Position numbers and translations under genes: made by a program
Part shown: positions 9,311 to 64,000 of the stretch, piece by piece
Layout of the letters: every line of letters begins with the position of its first letter
How positions within the stretch are numbered: the stretch's first letter is position 1
Notes under the pieces: model-generated
Databases searched by the model: none
What the model saw: only the letters and a program-made list of their open reading frames with translations
Told to the model about the DNA's origin: nothing
Assembly (NCBI GenBank): GCA_963830225.1
Contig: CAWHLO010000003.1
Coordinates: forward strand, 253,812-317,811
Reading direction: 5' to 3'
DNA length: 64,000 nt
Source of the DNA: an uncultured Acidobacteriota bacterium
Lineage (GTDB): Bacteria; Acidobacteriota; Terriglobia; Terriglobales; Acidobacteriaceae

Positions 9311-11158
9311 ATGCGTCGCGTGCTTTTGGGCGTGTTACTTTTCTCGCCAGCTGTAGCCGTATCCGGTCATGCTCGAAAGCCTGTACAGTCCAACCAGCCC
9401 ATGGCAAGCGAAACGGGAGGCATCGCCTCCGCCGGCATCTTCGCTCCTGTTTACGATGCGCAGAGACGGCCTATCACCGCCGGCGGATTTGTCGACAAAG
9501 GCACTATTGTCTTCGAAGATGACACCGAAGCCGCGGGGCTCTCAGGATGGCGCCATGTGATGGGCACACCCCAGAAAAAGTACATCCTCGAAACGGACGG
9601 CTCAGGCGTTTGCCTACTGGATTACGACAACGACGGGTGGCTGGATATATTTCTGGTAAACGGCTCGACTTATGATGCGCTGGACGGCAAAGCCATCCCG
9701 CCACACGCCGCGCTCTTCCATAACAACCATGACGGCACTTTTACCAACGTCGCTAACTTTGCGGGTGTGACCAATGACCGATGGGGCTTCGGCTGCGCGG
9801 TGGGCGACTACAACAACGACGGCTGGCCCGATATTTTTGTAGCCAATTTCGGCAAGAACCGCCTCTTCCGAAACAACCACGATGGAACATTTACAGACGT
9901 CGCAGAAAAAGCAGGTGTTGCTCTTGGCAACTGGTCGGACGGTGCAACCTGGGGCGATTATGATGGTGACGGCCGCCTCGATCTCTTCGTATCCGGTTAT
10001 ATCCACTATGACTTAAACCATCAGCCCAGCGCCGAAGACGGAAGTGCATCGACCGCACATTGCCAGATGCGCGGCGTACCGGTGATGTGCGGTCCCCGCG
10101 GACTTCCCGGTGAGCCGGACCACCTGTTTCACAACAACGGTGACGGCACGTTCACTGACGTAAGCGTGCATGCCGGGGTCTCCGACCCCAACCACTTCTA
10201 TGGATTCACCGCGATCTTCGTTGATGTGAACAACGACGGCAAAGTCGATCTGCTTGTTGCCAACGACTCGGAGCGCAATTTTCTCTACATCAACAACGGG
10301 GATGGTACTTTCGACGACGAGAGTGTACTCTCCGGCTTTGCATACAACTTCGACGGCCGCGAGATCGCCTCCATGGGTCTGGCAGTGGGCGATTATTTGA
10401 ACGACGGCCGGGTCGACGTGCTGGATACCGATTTTTCAGACGACTTCAAGGCGCTCTATCGCAACGATGGCGATGCCAGCTTTACCGACGTTAGCCGCCA
10501 GTCGGGCATCGCCCAGATTGCTATTCCCTTTGTCGGCTGGGGCGACGGCCTCTTTGACTACGATAACGACGGCTGGAAAGACATTATGATGATCAACGGC
10601 CACGTCTATCCCCAGGTGAACGAGCACAATTGGGGGACGACCTACGCCGAGCGACCGCTGTTGTTTCACAACGACCACCACGGAAAGTTCGTATACGTCC
10701 CGCCTGTGAAGGGATCGGGGCTGGCCGTGCTCACTCCCGGACGTGGCGCCGCTTTTGGCGACCTTTTCAACAATGGCAAGATCGACGCTGTTATCAATCC
10801 CGTGGACGGGCCACCGGTTCTGTTGAAGAACGTCGACCCCGATCATCACCACTGGGTAGAGCTCAAGCTCATTGGGGGGCTTAAGAGTCCGCGCGACGCT
10901 GTCGGCGCCACGGTCTATCTGAATGCGGATGGAATGCGTCAACGGGAGGACATCATGAGCGGGGGAAGTTATATTTCATCGAACGATCAACGTGCGCATT
11001 TCGGGCTGGGCAATGCAACCGACGCCGGAACCGCCGAGATTCACTGGCCATCCGGCCGTGTGGAAAAGGTCAAGATCCCTGCCGTCGATCACATTTTCGC
11101 CATCACCGAAGGGAAAGGGATAACCGGTGTGTTTTGTGCCAAACCGCCGTGCTCTTGA
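9311..11158 (+). CDS. CRTAC1-family (FG-GAP repeats + ASPIC/UnbV) exported protein
   Basis: Six DxD/NxDG.xD repeats (DYDNDGWLD, DYNNDGWPD, DYDGDGRLD, DVNNDGKVD, DYLNDGRVD, DYDNDGWKD); C-terminal GGSYISSNDQRAHFGLG; signal peptide MRRVLLGVLL at 9311. Confidence 0.9.
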   Translation: MRRVLLGVLLFSPAVAVSGHARKPVQSNQPMASETGGIASAGIFAPVYDAQRRPITAGGFVDKGTIVFEDDTEAAGLSGWRHVMGTPQKKYILETDGSGVCLLDYDNDGWLDIFLVNGSTYDALDGKAIPPHAALFHNNHDGTFTNVANFAGVTNDRWGFGCAVGDYNNDGWPDIFVANFGKNRLFRNNHDGTFTDVAEKAGVALGNWSDGATWGDYDGDGRLDLFVSGYIHYDLNHQPSAEDGSASTAHCQMRGVPVMCGPRGLPGEPDHLFHNNGDGTFTDVSVHAGVSDPNHFYGFTAIFVDVNNDGKVDLLVANDSERNFLYINNGDGTFDDESVLSGFAYNFDGREIASMGLAVGDYLNDGRVDVLDTDFSDDFKALYRNDGDASFTDVSRQSGIAQIAIPFVGWGDGLFDYDNDGWKDIMMINGHVYPQVNEHNWGTTYAERPLLFHNDHHGKFVYVPPVKGSGLAVLTPGRGAAFGDLFNNGKIDAVINPVDGPPVLLKNVDPDHHHWVELKLIGGLKSPRDAVGATVYLNADGMRQREDIMSGGSYISSNDQRAHFGLGNATDAGTAEIHWPSGRVEKVKIPAVDHIFAITEGKGITGVFCAKPPCS

Positions 11159-11307
11159 GCTTCATGAGCAAACGGCAAGACGCTGGGTTCTGGAATGAAA
11201 ATCAGGCACATCTCGCCGTTGGGAGTAGTGGAGTCATACTTATGGAACCGGAAAAGGACCTCGACGTTGATGGCGCGGGTATAAGATCACGCTGGAGCCC
11301 ATCGCAG

Positions 11308-56281: not shown

Positions 56282-58726
56282 TCACTGATTCCCTACGAAG
56301 CGATTCGAGTTCACATAGAGTTTTTCTCCCAGTGAGGCAGCCATGGTCAACCAGCGCTGCGCCTCCTCGTCCCCTGCTTCGGCGCGGATTTTACAGTCTG
56401 GAGCGTAGGCCTGCATCACTTCAAAGTAGATATTCTGCGCTCGCCACAGGTTCACGTCGAAGGGGAGCAGGGCGGAAATACTTGCGGCCTGCTCGAATGA
56501 CTGGAGCCGGGCAATGTCGTCAGGGTGCTGCTGCAGCGCGTGGGCGGCACGCTCCACTGTCCGCCGGAAGGTGAATTCCAGTGAGACGCGGTGGAGCGGG
56601 ATGCCGGCACGTTCGATCTGCGCGAGGATTTCGGCGATCCTGTCCGGCTCGGCGTGATCCTTGGAAAGTGCGGTGTACAGCTCTTCGTGGAGGGAAAAAT
56701 CGACAGCCATCTGAAACTGCGGCGACAGCGGAACACCCATCTCCGCCACGAATCGAATGAGAGACCCATATTGCGCGTAGAAGCCACGGTAGAGACCGGA
56801 GGCTTCAGCAGTGGCGTTGTCGAGAATGAGGTTGACGATTTTGCGCTGCTCGTCGCGGAAGAGGTAGCGCAGAGAAAACGTGCCGGTGGCGAAATTGCGG
56901 TCCACAGCGCGGATCAACTCTGGAAGATCGCCGCGGCGAAAAACTTCAGCGGTTTCGCCGGCCATGGCCTGATAGGCTTCATCGCCGCCGAAGGGACGCA
57001 CGCCGCCATAAACGTTCTGATCGCCCAGATGCAGCACACCGAAGCTGATGACGTTCGACTCACGCGTGATGTCGGAAGTAATAGTCACTTTTCCCAGCGC
57101 GAGGCGCGCCTTGCCTTCCTGAAGCAGGCGAAAATCATTTCGTTTTACTGAGTAGCAGTAGATCTGCGACTTGTCACCGTACTCATCGAAGAGCGAACTG
57201 ATGGCATAGTGCGCTCCAACCTTCTGCAGATCGACGACCGAAGGGCGAACAAATTTCTCAAAGATTTTGCGTCCATTGCCGTACTCGGGAATGTTGCTCT
57301 TGGCGCTCTCGAGCCTCTCCAGAAATCCTTCTTCAAGGCTATCGCCGGTCAGCTCTTCGGCCAGTTGCAGAGCGCGTGCGGCGTACTGAATCACCTGTAC
57401 CGTCTCGATGCCGGAGATTTCATCAAAGAACCAACCGCAACTTGTGTACATGAGCATGGCATGGCGCTGAATCTCCAGCAGCTTGAGCGCCACGGCCTGG
57501 TCTTTGCTTGAAAGCGGGGCGCGCGCGTGGCGGCTGAAGAAGCGCTTCACGCTTGAGCGCGCGCGGTCAAGAACTACGTCAATATATTCGTCGCGGGCAT
57601 GCCATGGATCCGCAAAGAATGCCGCAGCGCGCGTCTCGAACTCCTCCGCAAGCTTGTCGCGAAGCCAGTCGAGCGCTTCGCGCAGCGGGGCGCGCCACTC
57701 CTGGTTCCAGCCGGGATGGCCGCCGGAGTTGCAGCCGCAGTTCCCGCGCCAGCGCTCAACGCCGTGGAAGCAGCTCCACGAGCTGTTCTCGACAATCTGC
57801 ACCTCATGGGCCGGTGGATGCCTGTCGAGGAACTCGGCGTAATTGGTCAATTGTGCGATCTGATCGGACTCGATGTAGTGCAGCGCGTAGGCAAGCGCCA
57901 TGTCACCATAGCGACGGTGGTGTCCGTAGGTTTCGCCATCGGTCGCCATGTGGACAAGTTGCGGCCATTCGCGCCTGTCAGAGAATGCCCCGGCGAGACG
58001 ATGCGCCAGATTTTCGCCGCGGTCGAGAAGGTTCTCAAAGGCCACCGCCTTCGATATGGGACCGTCGTAGAAAAACAGGTTGATGCTCTGCCCCGATGGA
58101 AGACGATGCAGATAGACCGTCGAGGGATCGATGCGTCCGCCTTTGACATCGCGCCATGCGCGCGCGCCGCGAGAACGGGCACGGCCGGCTTGAAAGGGGC
58201 TGAGAACTGTGAAGCGAATGCCGGCAGCGGCCAGGATCTCCAGAGTCTCAATATCTACGGCGGTTTCAGGCAGCCACATGCCCTCAGGCATTCTGCCAAA
58301 GCGCGACTTGAAATCGCGAATGCCCCAAAGTACCTGCGTACGCTTATCGCGGCTGTTAGCCAGCGGCAGAATCATGTGGTTGTATGCCTGCGCCATGGCG
58401 GAACCATGCCCTGAAAATTGGCGCCGGCTCTGGCGGTCAGCGTCGAGCACCGACCGGTAAACCTGCGGCGCGTTATCTTTCATCCAGGCAAGCAGAGTGG
58501 GACCGAAGTTGTAGCTGATATGTGCGTAGTTGTTGACGATGCGCTCGATACGGCCGTCGGCGTTGAGGATTCGGGCGGCGCTGTTGGGCGCGTAGCACTC
58601 GGCCGTAATCCGCTCATTCCAATCGTGATAGGGATAGGCAGAATCCTGAAGCTCGATTGCCTCCAGCCATGGATTCTCCCGGGGCGGTTGATAGAAGTGG
58701 CCATGAATGCAGATGTAACGTGCCAA
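56282..58726 (-). CDS. GH57-family alpha-glucan-active protein with DUF3536
   Basis: ICIHGHFYQPPRENPW, GMWLPETAVD, ATDGETYGHH, MYTSCGWFFD; TTG start with RBS GGAGG. Confidence 0.88.
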   Translation of the reverse strand: MARYICIHGHFYQPPRENPWLEAIELQDSAYPYHDWNERITAECYAPNSAARILNADGRIERIVNNYAHISYNFGPTLLAWMKDNAPQVYRSVLDADRQSRRQFSGHGSAMAQAYNHMILPLANSRDKRTQVLWGIRDFKSRFGRMPEGMWLPETAVDIETLEILAAAGIRFTVLSPFQAGRARSRGARAWRDVKGGRIDPSTVYLHRLPSGQSINLFFYDGPISKAVAFENLLDRGENLAHRLAGAFSDRREWPQLVHMATDGETYGHHRRYGDMALAYALHYIESDQIAQLTNYAEFLDRHPPAHEVQIVENSSWSCFHGVERWRGNCGCNSGGHPGWNQEWRAPLREALDWLRDKLAEEFETRAAAFFADPWHARDEYIDVVLDRARSSVKRFFSRHARAPLSSKDQAVALKLLEIQRHAMLMYTSCGWFFDEISGIETVQVIQYAARALQLAEELTGDSLEEGFLERLESAKSNIPEYGNGRKIFEKFVRPSVVDLQKVGAHYAISSLFDEYGDKSQIYCYSVKRNDFRLLQEGKARLALGKVTITSDITRESNVISFGVLHLGDQNVYGGVRPFGGDEAYQAMAGETAEVFRRGDLPELIRAVDRNFATGTFSLRYLFRDEQRKIVNLILDNATAEASGLYRGFYAQYGSLIRFVAEMGVPLSPQFQMAVDFSLHEELYTALSKDHAEPDRIAEILAQIERAGIPLHRVSLEFTFRRTVERAAHALQQHPDDIARLQSFEQAASISALLPFDVNLWRAQNIYFEVMQAYAPDCKIRAEAGDEEAQRWLTMAASLGEKLYVNSNRFVGNQ

Positions 58727-58837
58727 TGCGGAACCTCCGATTCCTCTCCGTAAACTAACACCTGACAGCGGAGGAGTTGAAGCGGCTGCGCGCGTAGAGA
58801 ATTTTCGGACTACGGTACGCGGGGTTGCAGAATGGGC

Positions 58838-59650
58838 TCAATCAGAGATCTGCCAGCTTCTGAGCATGCCGCGGCGCAGGAACTCGCGCTTGGCGCGGGC
58901 GGTTACGTCGCTCTGCATGCGCGGCAGCAGCCGGTGGTCGTAAACATAAGCCTTGATGTGAAGCCGCAGGTATGGCCGGCGCTCGAACTGGTCTTCGACG
59001 AGAACAACCACCGGCTTGGCGGAATAGAGATAAGGACAGGTGTAAGCGGCTTCGGAACCGATACGAATGGCCTCATCCGGGTCGGCATCTGGAGGCAGGT
59101 AGAGAAGCGTCTCTACCTGGCAGTGCGGCACACCCGAATTCGAATCAAAGATCTGGCTGCTGAGGATGTCGGCGTTGGGAATGGTAACGCGCGTGTCGCC
59201 GAAGGTGGTGAGTTTGGTGCTCCGCAGGCCAATATGATCGATTTCGCCAAAGGCGCCGCCAATCTGAACCAGATCGCCCAATTGGTAAGGACGGTCGCCT
59301 ACAACGACGAGACCGCCAATAAGATTCTTGACCAGATCCTGCGCGCCCAGGCCGACAGCGAGGGCCACCGAACCAACCACGGCCAGAAATGTTTGCCGCG
59401 TGGGCGCCAGCAAATGAAAGGCGATAAGCATGGCGCCAAACCACAGAATGATGCGCAGGATCGGGTCCGCTGCTTTTGCCAGAAAGCGGATGCGCGGCCC
59501 GCGCCGGCTGAGCACATCGAGCAATCGTGAGGCATAACGGATGAACACCCAGGTAACGGCGAGAATGACGAAGACGGAAAAAATCCGCCCGAAGGTGAAG
59601 TACTGGAAGATGTCGCGTGTTGCAGCCGATTCGCCAAATTGCATGTTCAC
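58838..59650 (-). CDS. Small-conductance mechanosensitive channel (MscS family), short form
   Basis: About three TM segments; ALAVGLGAQDLVKNLIGG, YQLGDLVQIG, G.I..IGLRST, VTIPN. Confidence 0.9.
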   Translation of the reverse strand: MNMQFGESAATRDIFQYFTFGRIFSVFVILAVTWVFIRYASRLLDVLSRRGPRIRFLAKAADPILRIILWFGAMLIAFHLLAPTRQTFLAVVGSVALAVGLGAQDLVKNLIGGLVVVGDRPYQLGDLVQIGGAFGEIDHIGLRSTKLTTFGDTRVTIPNADILSSQIFDSNSGVPHCQVETLLYLPPDADPDEAIRIGSEAAYTCPYLYSAKPVVVLVEDQFERRPYLRLHIKAYVYDHRLLPRMQSDVTARAKREFLRRGMLRSWQISD

Positions 59651-59656
59651 ACCTCC

Positions 59657-62443
59657 CTAGAGAAGATTCTGCCGTTCGAGGGCATCGCGGACAAAGCGTC
59701 CCGCCTGAGGACGAACACGTAGCCCGGGAAACGCCGGTTCCGGCTCCACGATCTCCAGCGCCTCGAGCCGTTCGAGCCGATGGCGCGCATCGTCAAGGCC
59801 GATCGTAAACACTTCAGCCAGTTCCTCAGGCGTAAGGCTGGAATGCTGAAAGATTCCCTGCAGGGTAAACAGATCTTCTCGTGCCAGCTCAGCTTCAAGA
59901 CGCTTGTAGTTGGGATCGAGCGGCTGCAGCATGCGCACCATCGCTCCCTCAATGCGATCTATGCTGCCAAGCCAGAGTTCGAAGGCCGAACGGAAGAGGC
60001 CCTCCGACTGGCGATAGAGCGCGTTGAAAAAAAGATCCTGGGGAGTCTGCTCGAGGCCAACAAATTGCCTCACTTTGTTGAGGCGAGGATCGCCCGGAGC
60101 GACGGGAGCAAAGTGCAGGCGCAGGCCCGAGAGCGTGTGCCGCTGTATGACGGCATCCGTCATGTGCTCCGGGGTTACTGACATAGCGTTGATGTGATGC
60201 GAGAAGTTCCGGCCAAGCCCGACAACTGCGTCAAGATAGCGGAATGAAACGCGATTCATGCTGAGGATCCACAGGATAGAGCCGGATGTGGCGGACATCA
60301 GCCGCAGGAATCCGCGCAACGCCTCGAATCCGTTCATGCAGCGCAGAAAAGTACGTTCAAACTCTTCAAGGATCACCACCTGGCGCTGCCCATCAAGCGC
60401 CCTTGCCAGATCGGCTCCTGCCGGAAGCCGAAACAGATCCCTGAAAAACTCATCCATCTGCTGCGGGCTGCGGATTCGCTCAGAAAACTGCGCGCGCACC
60501 ACGGGAACGCCGGGAAACGCAACAACGGAAGCACAATTCAGAAGACTGGTCTTTCCACTGCCGCGAGCGCCCGCTAAAAGCACCGAGGCACGCTGCCCCG
60601 ATTGCCAGAGCGAGAACGCGCGGCTGAGGCCGGTCATCTCCACTTCCCTGCCCACGAGGAAGCGCTGATCTTCAACCGGCGCCAGGCTGAAAAGGCGCTC
60701 GTAGAGGGCAGGCAGGTTACGCGGCTTGAGCTGGGCTTCAAGAACGACGCTCAGGGGTGTCCGCTCCACAAGTGCTTCAACGTGCTCCTCGACGGGCCGC
60801 TCCCAGCCGAGTTTCCAGGCAATCCAATGAAATGCTTTCCCGGCCAGGCTGTTGAGAGCGCGAGAGGCGGCGCGCAAGGAATCGAGGCCGGCCTGCCACA
60901 GGTTGCGGGCTGCACGCGGGGCGCTCTGCCGCGTGACCAGCGCGAACAAGCCTAGTTGCCCGAATTCAAGGGCCGTATGCGTCTCGAGCAGAGCCAGAGC
61001 CTGAGCGCGGCAGAGTCCTGCTTCCGCGGCGGGTTGCGGATTGCCCTGGATCTCGCGGCGATGCTCGAGGAGCGCCAGGGCATTGGCAGCAGCTTCACGC
61101 GGAATCGCTTCCACCTCGGCGCCGTCCGACCGCGCGACTTCAAGCGCAAAGGCAACCACCTGACGCGCCTGCTCAATGTCGCGAATCACGCCAGTGTGCT
61201 CGGTTTCCACTTCGCGAAAACCCTCACGAGCAGCTTCAAGACCGCTGTGTTTGAACGCGTGGAGCACGACAGCCCGTGGACCCAGTTGCCGCCAGCGGCT
61301 TCTCCAGCGGTCCAATGCGCGAGAGACCCTGACCGCTTCGACATCCACAGGTACTTCCTGCTGCACACGGAAGGAAACCCTCTCGGCCCAGTCTCGGGCA
61401 CGCTGCCCAGCGGGGAGCAGCCTGGCTTTTGGAGGTGGAAATTTCTCTTCGCTACGCTGCCCCGGTCCCGCCTGGAGCCAGGCGATCGCCCAATCCATCT
61501 CCTCCGCGACGTCGTCGTGCTCGGCGCGCACAGATTCCAGCGAATGCCGGGTCGCCTGGATGGTCTCGCGCGCCACAGCGATAAGCTTTCGTTCCAGATC
61601 GACGGTGGCGCGCACAGCGCGGTACTGGCGGTGCCATTCACTGAAATCGCGATCCCATTGCCGTACGATCCTGCCCTGGCGTTTCTCTGAGATCTCCGGC
61701 ACGCGGCGCATGACCGATTGGCCGAGCAAGGCAGGGTAGTTTTCAGCCCAATGGCGATAGGAGTGAATCAGGCGCCCGGCACGAGCAGCAAGCCTGGCTG
61801 CATTTCGCAGCCACCATTTCCGCTCCTCGGCGAGCGCCGCTGCATCACGGCCACCGCTGGTCTCCGCCGCCAGTTGATGGCGGCGGTAGAGTTGCCACGC
61901 AGCCACCAGATGAAGTCCCGCTCGCACCAGCAGGCGCTCGAATGCCTCGTCGATTGGCGCGCGACGCTCGATCTGGGCCCACATATTGGCAAGGATGATC
62001 CTACGCAATCGCAGCGGCTGGGCCGATTTACGGCGCTTCATCCACGCCTTTCGCAACCGGTCACGCGCGTCAGAACCGAGGATCGCGACCAGTTCTGCGC
62101 CGGAAATTGCCGTCATGCGCGGCAACGTGCGTGCCAGGTCGTTCATTTCCAGCCGGTGTTTTTCAATGGCCAGAAGGGTTCGGCCGATCGGCCTGAATTT
62201 CTCAAAGGCGCCAAGCGGATCGCCGAACAGTTGATCCGATGCTTCGCCAAAAAGCCAGTCAAAGAAAGCAACGGCGCCGGGCTCGGCTTCGCCCTGCGTA
62301 ATGGAATCGAGACGGTTGCGCAGTTGCTCGATCAGACTGCGGACGTCTTCCCAGGCCCCGGCCATTTCGCCGGCGAGACGCTCATTGGCGAGTTGAAAGT
62401 TGGCACGGAATTCTTTCCATGCCTCGGCTGGAAGCTCGCGCAT
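59657..62443 (-). CDS. Large hypothetical P-loop ATPase (helical N-terminus, AAA-like domain, C-terminal winged helix)
   Basis: FLVGRE.E; Walker A GARGSGKT; Walker B-like VVILEE; C-terminal LTPEELAEVF...ARHRLERLEALEIVE. Confidence 0.7.
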   Translation of the reverse strand: MRELPAEAWKEFRANFQLANERLAGEMAGAWEDVRSLIEQLRNRLDSITQGEAEPGAVAFFDWLFGEASDQLFGDPLGAFEKFRPIGRTLLAIEKHRLEMNDLARTLPRMTAISGAELVAILGSDARDRLRKAWMKRRKSAQPLRLRRIILANMWAQIERRAPIDEAFERLLVRAGLHLVAAWQLYRRHQLAAETSGGRDAAALAEERKWWLRNAARLAARAGRLIHSYRHWAENYPALLGQSVMRRVPEISEKRQGRIVRQWDRDFSEWHRQYRAVRATVDLERKLIAVARETIQATRHSLESVRAEHDDVAEEMDWAIAWLQAGPGQRSEEKFPPPKARLLPAGQRARDWAERVSFRVQQEVPVDVEAVRVSRALDRWRSRWRQLGPRAVVLHAFKHSGLEAAREGFREVETEHTGVIRDIEQARQVVAFALEVARSDGAEVEAIPREAAANALALLEHRREIQGNPQPAAEAGLCRAQALALLETHTALEFGQLGLFALVTRQSAPRAARNLWQAGLDSLRAASRALNSLAGKAFHWIAWKLGWERPVEEHVEALVERTPLSVVLEAQLKPRNLPALYERLFSLAPVEDQRFLVGREVEMTGLSRAFSLWQSGQRASVLLAGARGSGKTSLLNCASVVAFPGVPVVRAQFSERIRSPQQMDEFFRDLFRLPAGADLARALDGQRQVVILEEFERTFLRCMNGFEALRGFLRLMSATSGSILWILSMNRVSFRYLDAVVGLGRNFSHHINAMSVTPEHMTDAVIQRHTLSGLRLHFAPVAPGDPRLNKVRQFVGLEQTPQDLFFNALYRQSEGLFRSAFELWLGSIDRIEGAMVRMLQPLDPNYKRLEAELAREDLFTLQGIFQHSSLTPEELAEVFTIGLDDARHRLERLEALEIVEPEPAFPGLRVRPQAGRFVRDALERQNLL

Positions 62444-62616
62444 GATTTCCCCTCCGACTCGCCCTAGTATGCGGCCATCGATACATTGTAGTTTCCCATT
62501 TCAGGGAAAATACAAGTTCGTAAAAGCTTGTGCCGGCATGAGCCATGGCAGCAGGCACCAGCTAACGGCAAATCCTGCGATTTCCTTCGCCGCGGCCACC
62601 TGGCTCAAAACGGAAT

Positions 62617-64000
62617 CTAGCTGTCATCCTCCATGCCAGATTCCTGCAAGGACGGCGACTTCTTCAACGGCTTCCGGGCAAAGTAATACAACGAGAACGC
62701 CAGCGCGGCGAAGGCTGCCACCGCAACTCCCTGGTTATCCAGAAACGTATGCGGGAAGCGAAGTATGTTTCCTTTCTCGAAGGTGGTTTCATAGAGCTTC
62801 AACGCGACGCCCAGCAGGCCAATGATGCCGCCGGCCGCGATCAGTCCGCTGGCGTAAAGACTGCCGGGAGAAATTTCGCTTTCCCCGGTGTCGCCGGCTT
62901 TTTCCGCGGCCCTGTCAATAAACCAGCGCACCATGCCCCCAACAAAAATTGCCAGCGTGGTACCTAAAGGCAAATACGCTCCCACGGCGAAGGCCAGCGA
63001 CCGGATGCCAAGCAGCTCAACCGCTATAACAAGGAAGACACCCAGCATCACCAGTCCCCAGGGAAGATTACGCCCGAGGATGCCGCTGATGACTGTCGCC
63101 ATTAGGCGCGCCTGCGGGGCCGGCGCGCTCGCGCTGCCGATACCGGGAATCCAATGTACTTCAATGCGGTGTGTGGCCGGCGAGTAGAGATACTTGCCAT
63201 TGGCCAGCACCGGCGATCCGATGGCGTTAAGGACGATGTACTCCGACTTATGGTGAACTGTCGTTGTATGGTCCGGCCCTTCCACCGTGAACTGCTCAGG
63301 CAGCCCCTGAACGTTGCGCTGAATATTCACGCCGGGATGGGGAGCGTTGATATTCCAGGCCATCGGCGCGGCCTGGAAGGCTGCCAGACCGCTATTCATA
63401 AGATTCAGCGTGAAACCGATGGCGACGGTGGAGACTATGACCCCCACAAAGAGAGCAAGCTGCTGCAGTCGCGGTGTAGATCCAACCAGGAAGCCGGTCT
63501 TCAGATCCTGTGACGTGTCACCCGCGTTTGCGGCGGCAATGCAGACCACACCGCCGATGGTGATGGCGAGCGCCCCATAGGCGGGAGCTGTCCAGCCGCG
63601 CACAAGGAAAATGGCTGCGGTAGCCATCAGCGTAGCGATCGTCATGCCGGAAATAGGGTTGGCCGAACTGCCTATGAGGCCGACGATACGCGAGCTGACT
63701 GTAACGAAGAGAAACCCAAAGACGACGATCAGAAGAGCGGCAGCAAGATTCGCGCCCCAGCCGACGAAGGTTCCAGGAACCGGCTTGAACTGGAGAAAGA
63801 AGAATATGCAAAAGATGAGCAGCACGGATCCACCCACAACTGTCGCCATGGATAAGTCGTTCTCCGTGCGGCGCGGTGTGGAGCGTTTCACCGAGCCGGG
63901 GCGCAGATTCTTAAAGCCCGCGCCCAGCGCGTTGAAGATCGTAGGGAGCGTTTTGATCAGAGTGATAAGTCCCGCGGCGGCCACGGCGCCGGCCCCCAAA
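62617..64000 (-). CDS. OPT-family oligopeptide transporter, 5'-partial
   Basis: IGSSANPISGMTIATL, AANAGDTSQDLKTG, APAPQARLM, YLPL, ASGLIAAGG. Confidence 0.92.
   Translation of the reverse strand, partial: LGAGAVAAAGLITLIKTLPTIFNALGAGFKNLRPGSVKRSTPRRTENDLSMATVVGGSVLLIFCIFFFLQFKPVPGTFVGWGANLAAALLIVVFGFLFVTVSSRIVGLIGSSANPISGMTIATLMATAAIFLVRGWTAPAYGALAITIGGVVCIAAANAGDTSQDLKTGFLVGSTPRLQQLALFVGVIVSTVAIGFTLNLMNSGLAAFQAAPMAWNINAPHPGVNIQRNVQGLPEQFTVEGPDHTTTVHHKSEYIVLNAIGSPVLANGKYLYSPATHRIEVHWIPGIGSASAPAPQARLMATVISGILGRNLPWGLVMLGVFLVIAVELLGIRSLAFAVGAYLPLGTTLAIFVGGMVRWFIDRAAEKAGDTGESEISPGSLYASGLIAAGGIIGLLGVALKLYETTFEKGNILRFPHTFLDNQGVAVAAFAALAFSLYYFARKPLKKSPSLQESGMEDDS

Follow-up and report, generated by a model that had tools for sequence, protein, structure and literature searches.

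A predicted AAA+ partner of an MscS-family channel in Acidobacteriota

Mechanosensitive channels of the MscS family are the textbook case of "force-from-lipid" gating, in which no other protein is needed. A September 2026 review of MscS-like gating, as far as its accessible text goes, also says that neither MscL nor MscS depends on accessory proteins (PMC13591265). What, then, is the gene of such a channel doing immediately behind that of a large ATPase? This arrangement is found on the minus strand of a 64,000-nucleotide stretch (referred to below as the window) of contig CAWHLO010000003.1, positions 253,812 to 317,811, from an uncultured bacterium of the Acidobacteriaceae (Acidobacteriota; assembly GCA_963830225.1). 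An original prediction made from these letters had described the two genes as a large ATPase translationally coupled to a minimal MscS channel, a pair of which no description was known. The analysis of sequences and models reported here suggests that the novelty of this locus lies in the combination of an MscS-family channel with a dedicated AAA+ partner not described before. Our literature searches, incomplete in coverage, found no description of an ATPase partner for MscS, and the words "ATPase," "ATP," "partner," and "operon" do not occur in the accessible text of the review (PMC13591265); as far as these sources reach, the pair stands as not described before.

Linkage and co-occurrence of the two genes

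The two genes and the short element between them are as follows.

59657..62443, minus strand: AAA+ partner gene (P0001), 928 amino acids, open reading frame with the stop codon included
58838..59644, minus strand: MscS-family channel gene (P0002 minus its first two residues), 268 amino acids, stop codon included
59652..59656, minus strand: GGAGG, a Shine-Dalgarno-like element between the two genes, read from the sequence

A scan of one genome per species yielded 178 relatives of the ATPase, from which 79 loci were kept, 77 of them with room downstream. A cognate MscS gene follows the ATPase gene on the same strand in 76 of these 77 loci (channels 43-82% identical), and in 59 of the 76 the first in-frame start of the channel lies between -7 and +17 nucleotides from the ATPase stop. 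Chance adjacency of the two genes was rejected on this count. No third conserved gene was found across the 79 loci plus the window; just the ATPase and channel genes recur, while their flanks differ. The phylum was sampled with 401 genomes, of which 400 are at least 90% complete. The ATPase profile matches eight of them, seven strongly, and a channel of the P0002 type (E ≤ 1e-85, 52-100% identity) is present in exactly those seven, the next-best channel matches in the sample falling to E 1e-38. The co-occurrence across genomes that the original prediction proposed to look for was therefore found, and the ATPase homologs are not unlinked from mscS, a finding that would have spoken against it.

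Linkage is broken in two genomes, G016 and G401 (the latter being the L061 genome), both of which still keep both genes on different contigs. The ATPase gene of G016 (L103, L104) lies beside nadA and its lone channel gene beside a Na+/H+ exchanger gene, while the L061 genome (L061, L110) has a cognate channel, 64% identical, with no ATPase gene upstream. Pairwise identities of the ATPases and of the channels co-vary (r = 0.84; 58 loci, 1653 pairs). Judged from these comparisons, the view that ATPase and channel form a dedicated pair with near-obligate linkage holds.

Both open reading frames lie where the original prediction had put them, but the channel, thought to have 270 residues and to begin 6 nucleotides past the ATPase gene, is better read as a protein of 268 residues beginning 12 nucleotides past it. 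The TAG of the ATPase gene (59659-59657) is followed at once by GGAGGT, then by GTG (59650), AAC, and ATG (59644). GGAGG abuts the GTG and ends 7 nucleotides before the ATG. Because this spacing suits the ATG and the closest homologs of the channel start with MQF or MQL, ATG 59644 rather than GTG 59650 is most likely the start.

Architecture of the two proteins

The AlphaFold2 model of the 928-residue ATPase, built from 68 homologs, has a mean predicted local distance difference test score (pLDDT) of 82.7 and falls into three parts, namely long helices (1-505), a disordered stretch (507-559), and an AAA+ core with lid and winged helix (about 565-928). The features assigned to it are listed here.

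60929..62443, minus strand: N-terminal region (residues 1-505), two elongated helical bundles (about 1-247 and 274-500), from the AlphaFold2 model
60767..60928, minus strand: low-confidence linker (residues 506-559), pLDDT below 50 at 507-536 and 546-559
59660..60766, minus strand: ORC/Cdc6-like AAA+ core, lid, and C-terminal winged helix (residues 560-928), from Foldseek and VIA structural comparison
60548..60571, minus strand: Walker A motif GARGSGKT (residues 625-632), from conservation
60362..60379, minus strand: Walker B variant VVILEE (residues 689-694), from conservation, with a strand at 688-693 in the model

The Walker A motif and the atypical Walker B motif (ILEE) of the original prediction were both confirmed. 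In Walker A, all 68 homologs keep G625, K631, and T632, and the invariant columns comprise G625, R627, G628, S629, G630, K631, T632, and S633, A626 being nearly so. In Walker B, E693 (68/68) and E694 (67/68) form a near-invariant EE pair in place of the usual DE or DD, distant homologs carrying D there, and are followed by E696 and R697 (both 68/68). N730, which follows the strand 723-729, is found in all 68 homologs, as are R768 and H769, while R735 is found in 49. N730 is a candidate for the sensor-1-type polar residue, and the invariant R697 and R768, together with the less conserved R735, are candidates for an arginine finger or sensor-2. With G625, K631, T632, E693, N730, R768, and H769 all kept in 68 of 68 homologs, the ATPase motifs are, on the evidence of conservation, intact.

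Foldseek placed A. pernix ORC2 (1w5t_A, E 2e-7) at the top, followed by ORC4, Cdc6, RuvB, and RFC (E 2e-7 to 1e-5). VIA gave Z 12-15 over residues 575-928 for ORC/Cdc6, NSF-D2, TnsC, MuB, PAB2304, SSO1545, BrxC, AVAST5, and NLRs, with 2qby_A (Z 14.2) and 1w5s_A (Z 13.8) aligned across residues 577-928. Because the ORC/Cdc6 matches extend to residue 928, the C-terminal winged-helix-like segment noticed earlier was also confirmed, as a winged helix in the model. The modeled fold is clearly that of an AAA+ protein with core, lid, and winged helix, while its assignment to the ORC/Cdc6-like clade is approximate because many AAA+ clades tie at Z 12-15. STAND NTPases have a winged helix followed by C-terminal sensor repeats (TPR, WD40, or LRR), usually with an N-terminal effector. 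Neither the model nor Pfam has sensor repeats after the winged helix here, so that, of the two relationships the original prediction had offered, the Cdc6-like one stood and the ATPase is not a canonical STAND protein.

Sequence profiles reach less far. The ATPase itself scored below the Pfam cut-offs for AAA_16 (PF13191; 28.6 bits against 32.6) and for BrxC_BrxD (E 0.0027; 17.1 bits against 22.2), while a precomputed table gives PF13191 for most of the homologs listed. No NCBIfam family matched it, and a profile search of the PDB returned P-loop-level matches only (ORC4, E 0.0012). Residues 560-928 matched unnamed AAA_22/AAA_16-type clusters from several phyla in the ESM Atlas, which we take as leads only. 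The protein has no hydrophobic segment (no 19-residue window above 1.4); we therefore regard it as cytoplasmic, and a membrane-anchored ATPase was rejected. The winged-helix region is acidic in 61 of the 68 homologs (median isoelectric point, pI, 5.4). At its very end lies an N-L-hydrophobic tail, with N926 and L927 each in 67 of 68 homologs, where the chains stop; distant homologs terminate in NLLPD. The ATPase is single-copy within its own genome and has 332 full-length-type homologs at E ≤ 1e-3 and 1122 representatives, clustered at 50% identity, at E ≤ 1e-30.

Folded alone, the N-terminal region gave a pLDDT of 90.0 and a predicted TM-score of 0.85. Neither Foldseek (at E ≤ 0.001) nor the ESM Atlas returned a usable match for residues 1-505. 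The best VIA match was NasR (4akk_B, Z 11.5, 215 residues aligned), and further ones were designed bundles, and chemoreceptor ligand-binding domains, TorS, talin, and dynamin stalks at Z 8-9, all of them below the noise limit of about Z 13 quoted for helical models. In 47 of the 68 homologs this region is basic (pI > 8). We regard the bundles as a putative sensor or scaffold.

The channel matches Pfam MS_channel_2nd (PF00924) at residues 105-167 (E 3.6e-18; 65.9 bits against a cut-off of 20.2), and no other Pfam domain, a cyclic nucleotide (cNMP)-binding domain included, was found in the 270-residue open reading frame. NCBIfam MscS models match residues 53-166, far under their equivalog cut-offs. 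A profile of 30 members of the channel family aligned with the solved chains of MscS, MscK, MscM, and YnaI (E 1e-21 to 1e-12), every MscS-family entry so matched being heptameric, with seven chains per entry. Because the channel has three hydrophobic (predicted transmembrane) segments and the profile covers residues 29-266 of the 286 of E. coli MscS (E about 4e-17), missing just the extreme C-terminal end, it is a normal-sized MscS and not the "minimal" one it had been called. Five other MscS-family genes are present in the same genome, each product 24-31% identical to the partnered channel. In alignment, the partnered channels have a signature absent from these five stand-alone paralogs, namely a short conserved loop between transmembrane segments 1 and 2 (TM1-TM2) and a run of motifs in the cytoplasmic domain, and they end ahead of a C-terminal segment that the stand-alone paralogs have. 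By these sequence characters, the partnered channel is a distinct MscS clade.

Seven further genomes hold second-tier channels, 31-36% identical to the window channel, and five of these loci were fetched. Directly upstream in four of the five is a protein with a C-terminal portion of about 340 residues homologous to residues 577-928 of the ATPase (27-34% identity by tblastn, E 0.08 to 5e-17). For two of these proteins (756 and 1464 amino acids), hhalign gave a probability of 98.8% (E 1e-16 and 5e-17). The N-termini of the four are unrelated, and their lengths are 574 (cut by a contig end), 756, 907, and 1464 amino acids. The pairing with a channel thus extends to distant relatives at 24-29% identity. 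At the fifth locus (G316), the upstream open reading frame of 565 amino acids reached an hhalign probability of just 25% against the ATPase profile. Because the second-tier loci keep the AAA+/lid/winged-helix module together with an MscS gene, the conserved unit is that module plus the MscS gene, with a variable N-terminus.

Surroundings, distribution and possible roles

We propose that the pair consists of an ATP-controlled AAA+ partner and a specialized MscS valve acting in turgor and ion homeostasis, not in immunity, with contact and gating as the parts that we infer, and we give this reading about an even chance of being right. The pair would be a two-component valve for the release of solutes or ions, in which the AAA+/lid/winged-helix module of the dedicated cytoplasmic partner would contact the cytoplasmic side of the channel and the ATP state of the module would set channel activity, through opening, locking, or assembly. 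Sensing or input would fall to the variable N-terminal region, which here consists of the two helical bundles. What the model supposes are the binding itself, which of the two proteins controls the other, the nature of the signal, and the role of the C-terminal tail. A more specific version, built on an analogy taken up in the last section, has an oligomer of the ATPase docking through its N-L tails on the cytoplasmic cage of the heptameric channel, so that ATP binding or hydrolysis, set by a signal read by the bundles, would open or lock the pore; we regard this version as doubtful.

The physiological setting is suggested by the neighboring genes, for which 117 of the 140 immediate neighbors were scanned, the 23 longer than 700 amino acids being left out. 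Pfam marked 12 of them as further MscS paralogs and one as a protein with an MscS TM-helix domain; ion and water transport is otherwise represented by two Na+/H+ exchangers, two aquaporins, and one ion channel. In 16 of the 76 loci the pair has one or two additional MscS genes within 6 kb, upstream or downstream depending on the lineage, while we estimate that chance would place an extra one within 12 kb in about 1-2% of loci (six MscS genes in 5.1 Mb), the observed share being inflated by kinship among the loci. An MscS paralog of about 305 amino acids stands directly upstream of the ATPase gene in L021, L023-L027, and L073, or downstream in L001, L007, L013, and L029. A canonical MscS with all three Pfam domains is found near the ATPase gene in L004, L006, L025, L026, L029, L035, and L054, and some loci (e.g., L025, L026, and L029) have three MscS-family genes around it. 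The ATPase might serve more than one channel.

In the window itself, the pair is flanked by the two genes named in the original prediction.

62617..63999, minus strand: OPT transporter gene, 3' part, upstream of the pair, from Pfam
56282..58726, minus strand: GH57+DUF3536 gene, downstream of the pair, from Pfam

The wider context is that of an ordinary chromosome (genes for a GH3 xylosidase, a TPR protein, a large outer-membrane barrel, LysR, LpxK, a Kdo transferase, and a SpoIIM-like protein), in which no mobile-element or defense genes were found. A scan of 58500-62800 gave no promoter-like site and 3 terminator-like sites, where shuffled sequences led one to expect 4.0, an uninformative result. 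In a comparison of synteny for an insertion scar, the GH57 neighbor was found to be 48-50% identical in same-genus genomes. The G+C content is 0.61-0.64 over most of the ATPase gene (60000-62000) against 0.55-0.59 in the flanking 10 kb, which could reflect an Arg/Ala-rich composition or a foreign origin. Genes of glucan metabolism recur beside the pair: the window has GH57+DUF3536, L012 and L061 have alpha-amylase-family genes, and L037 has a GH15/trehalase-like gene. This may be coincidence or a link to the turnover of compatible solutes or glycogen.

One phylum supplies nearly all rows of the ATPase locus set, and the few exceptions look mis-binned. Four records are labeled Patescibacteria, Actinomycetota, Acetobacteraceae, or Acidimicrobiia (L001, L004, L010, and L064), of which L001, L010, and L064 fall among Acidobacteriota rows in the tree and L004 is 56% identical to the window ATPase. 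The shortness of their contigs suggests that L004 and L010 are mis-binned contigs of metagenome-assembled genomes, a reason that does not apply to L001 (44 kb) and L064 (102 kb). Two deep clades divide the ATPase tree, one of forms with about 830 residues and the other of forms with about 928, each mixing Acidobacteriaceae and Bryobacterales rows. One Bryobacteraceae genome has two divergent copies of the whole pair, L041 (CAWJQP010000005) and L068 (CAWJQP010000073), one from each deep clade. A related pair is found in cultured Tunturiibacter strains (L038 and L040).

Several findings count against the valve that we propose. Members of the MscS family gate by tension alone in reconstituted systems, according to the accessible text of the review (PMC13591265), and because they do so without an accessory protein, the basic function of the channel does not depend on the ATPase. 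The N-terminal fold, which would carry the sensor, has no convincing known relative in the Foldseek and VIA searches. The pair is sporadic, being absent from all 36 genomes of the same family and all four of the same genus in the phylum sample, and this pattern also fits an accessory or mobile function. The enrichment of channel and transport genes in the neighborhood derives partly from related genomes and does not amount to a statistic on independent samples. Among the public sequencing runs searched for the stretch 58700-62600, no RNA run holds it. Near-identical DNA was found in nine DNA runs, one from soil, one from rhizosphere, and seven from salt-marsh metagenomes, by the criterion of at least half of the sampled words of the stretch; the study codes of the nine may be those of one campaign.

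Two other readings keep the ATPase and the channel functionally connected and dispense with gating. The ATPase could be a signal-sensing transcription regulator (MalT-like, an AAA_16-type NTPase with a helix-turn-helix) for which the channel operon is the DNA target and not a binding partner. In such a protein the winged helix would be the DNA-binding part, and the presence of a C-terminal winged helix and of a weak AAA_16 match agrees with this; structurally, the N-terminal bundles come closest to the NasR sensor domain, although at Z 11.5 it lies under the noise limit for helical models, and the persistence of both genes where they are unlinked fits a regulator and its target equally well. 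Yet the acidity of the winged-helix region is unusual for a DNA-binding domain, an invariant extreme C-terminal tail is not expected of helix-turn-helix regulators, and the regulator would sit about 12 nucleotides upstream of its only target and be co-transcribed with it in 76 of 77 loci, a tight operon arrangement that suggests matched stoichiometry over regulation. We therefore consider a regulator quite unlikely. The same operon structure implies tight co-expression, as would suit a factor for assembly, insertion, or quality control of the heptameric channel that acts in biogenesis or turnover only, and the structural matches of the ATPase (ORC/Cdc6, clamp loaders, TnsC, and MuB) are of the types of AAA+ protein that load or assemble other complexes. 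Ordinary MscS channels, however, including the five paralogs in the same genome, manage without such a factor, and a conserved bundle region of 500 residues exceeds the obvious needs of a chaperone; we think an assembly factor of this kind very unlikely.

The reading to which we give the least credence is an abortive-infection anti-phage system, in which the ATPase, as an AAA+/STAND-like NTPase, would detect infection and depolarize the cell by opening or deregulating the MscS-type pore. A two-gene cassette with variable flanks, present in 8 of 401 genomes and forming clades that mix Acidobacteriaceae and Bryobacterales, would suit a defense system. The ties in fold with BrxC (Z 12.4), AVAST5 (Z 12.5), and NLRs (Z about 12) point the same way, as do the weak matches to BrxC_BrxD (E 0.0027) and, in PADLOC-DB v2, to mad8 (E 0.0074, 13.8 bits), and the precomputed PF20703 (nSTAND1) in 6 of 120 among the homologs listed. 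In the Bryobacterales locus L017, the next gene downstream of the pair (9941-11209) encodes a Mutator-family transposase (Pfam E 2e-144) and is the sole mobile-element gene among the 117 neighbors. The mad8 match is marginal, however, and the only one for the ATPase, the channel matched nothing in PADLOC at E ≤ 0.1, and no bona fide defense gene was found among the 117 neighbors, of which 107 have no PADLOC match and ten are generic-domain cross-hits (a kinase, GlgB, ThiF, an MFS transporter, a UbiE methyltransferase, and five related OmpA-domain proteins). Relatives were found neither in 72,556 plasmids nor in viral contigs. The neighbors are ion and water transporters and housekeeping genes, the rows belong almost entirely to one phylum, and the N-terminal "sensor" is constant in length and confidently folded across the family. 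Of the two functions that the original prediction had left side by side, the handling of osmolytes or solutes is thus favored by the ion- and water-transport neighbors, and a STAND-like sensor with a membrane-pore effector is disfavored by the PADLOC, plasmid, and viral-contig searches.

If the proposed valve exists, some bacteria couple the release of turgor to ATP and a cytoplasmic signal, which would open a new chapter in the regulation of mechanosensitive channels and give a role to a family of about 1100 representatives now annotated as "hypothetical" or "AAA family ATPase." If tail docking were also true, a tension-gated safety valve would have become an energy- and ligand-controlled channel for solute release, the first nucleotide-driven channel of the mechanosensitive family, in a wide and undescribed superfamily of AAA+-partnered MscS proteins. 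Both proteins are of ordinary size, and the assays that bear on the proposal, survival of osmotic down-shock and patch clamp, are already established.

Comparison with known systems

Escherichia coli MscS (YggB), the MscS proteins of T. tengcongensis and H. pylori, and YnaI share family and size class with the channel described here. According to the accessible text of the review, E. coli MscS and its kin are stand-alone, tension-gated, and partnerless (PMC13591265), whereas this channel is found only together with an AAA+ gene; it also differs from stand-alone MscS in its own TM1-TM2 loop and cytoplasmic signature and in ending before the C-terminal segment of the paralogs. The bCNG channels, which the same text presents as the one MscS-like group known to be linked with a nucleotide ligand (PMC13591265), resemble the pair in that a cytoplasmic nucleotide-binding module is tied to an MscS body. 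In bCNG, a small cNMP-binding domain fused in cis provides this module, while here it is a separate protein of 928 amino acids with apparently intact motifs for hydrolysis; Pfam recognized no cNMP domain in the ATPase or in the channel.

On the side of the ATPase, Orc1/Cdc6, RuvB, RFC, TnsC, MuB, PAB2304, and SSO1545 have the same AAA+ core, lid, and winged-helix fold. Identity with the loaders of the Orc1/Cdc6 type is only 13-19%, and these work on DNA, while the winged-helix region of the ATPase is acidic in 61 of 68 homologs; they also have neither a helical N-terminus of 500 residues nor a channel partner. BrxC/PglY of BREX and the AVAST/STAND NTPases are related in their NTPase fold (BrxC, Z 12.2-12.4; AVAST5, Z 12.5). 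The ATPase differs from them in that its BrxC_BrxD match is below the cut-off, no sensor repeats follow the winged helix, and no BREX component (PglX, PglZ, or BrxA/B) or other defense gene was found among the neighbors or in the window context.

The analogy behind the docking proposal comes from the proteasome. The proteasomal AAA+ ATPases (PAN/Rpt) dock on the sevenfold gate of the 20S particle through their C-terminal tails. The pair described here likewise has an AAA+ protein with a strictly conserved C-terminal tail and, to judge from the solved MscS-family entries, a heptameric gated assembly. The tail motif differs from that of PAN/Rpt and kinship is limited to the AAA+ class, so that docking of the ATPase on its channel would be a likeness of arrangement, which we put forward purely by inference, and not one of descent.

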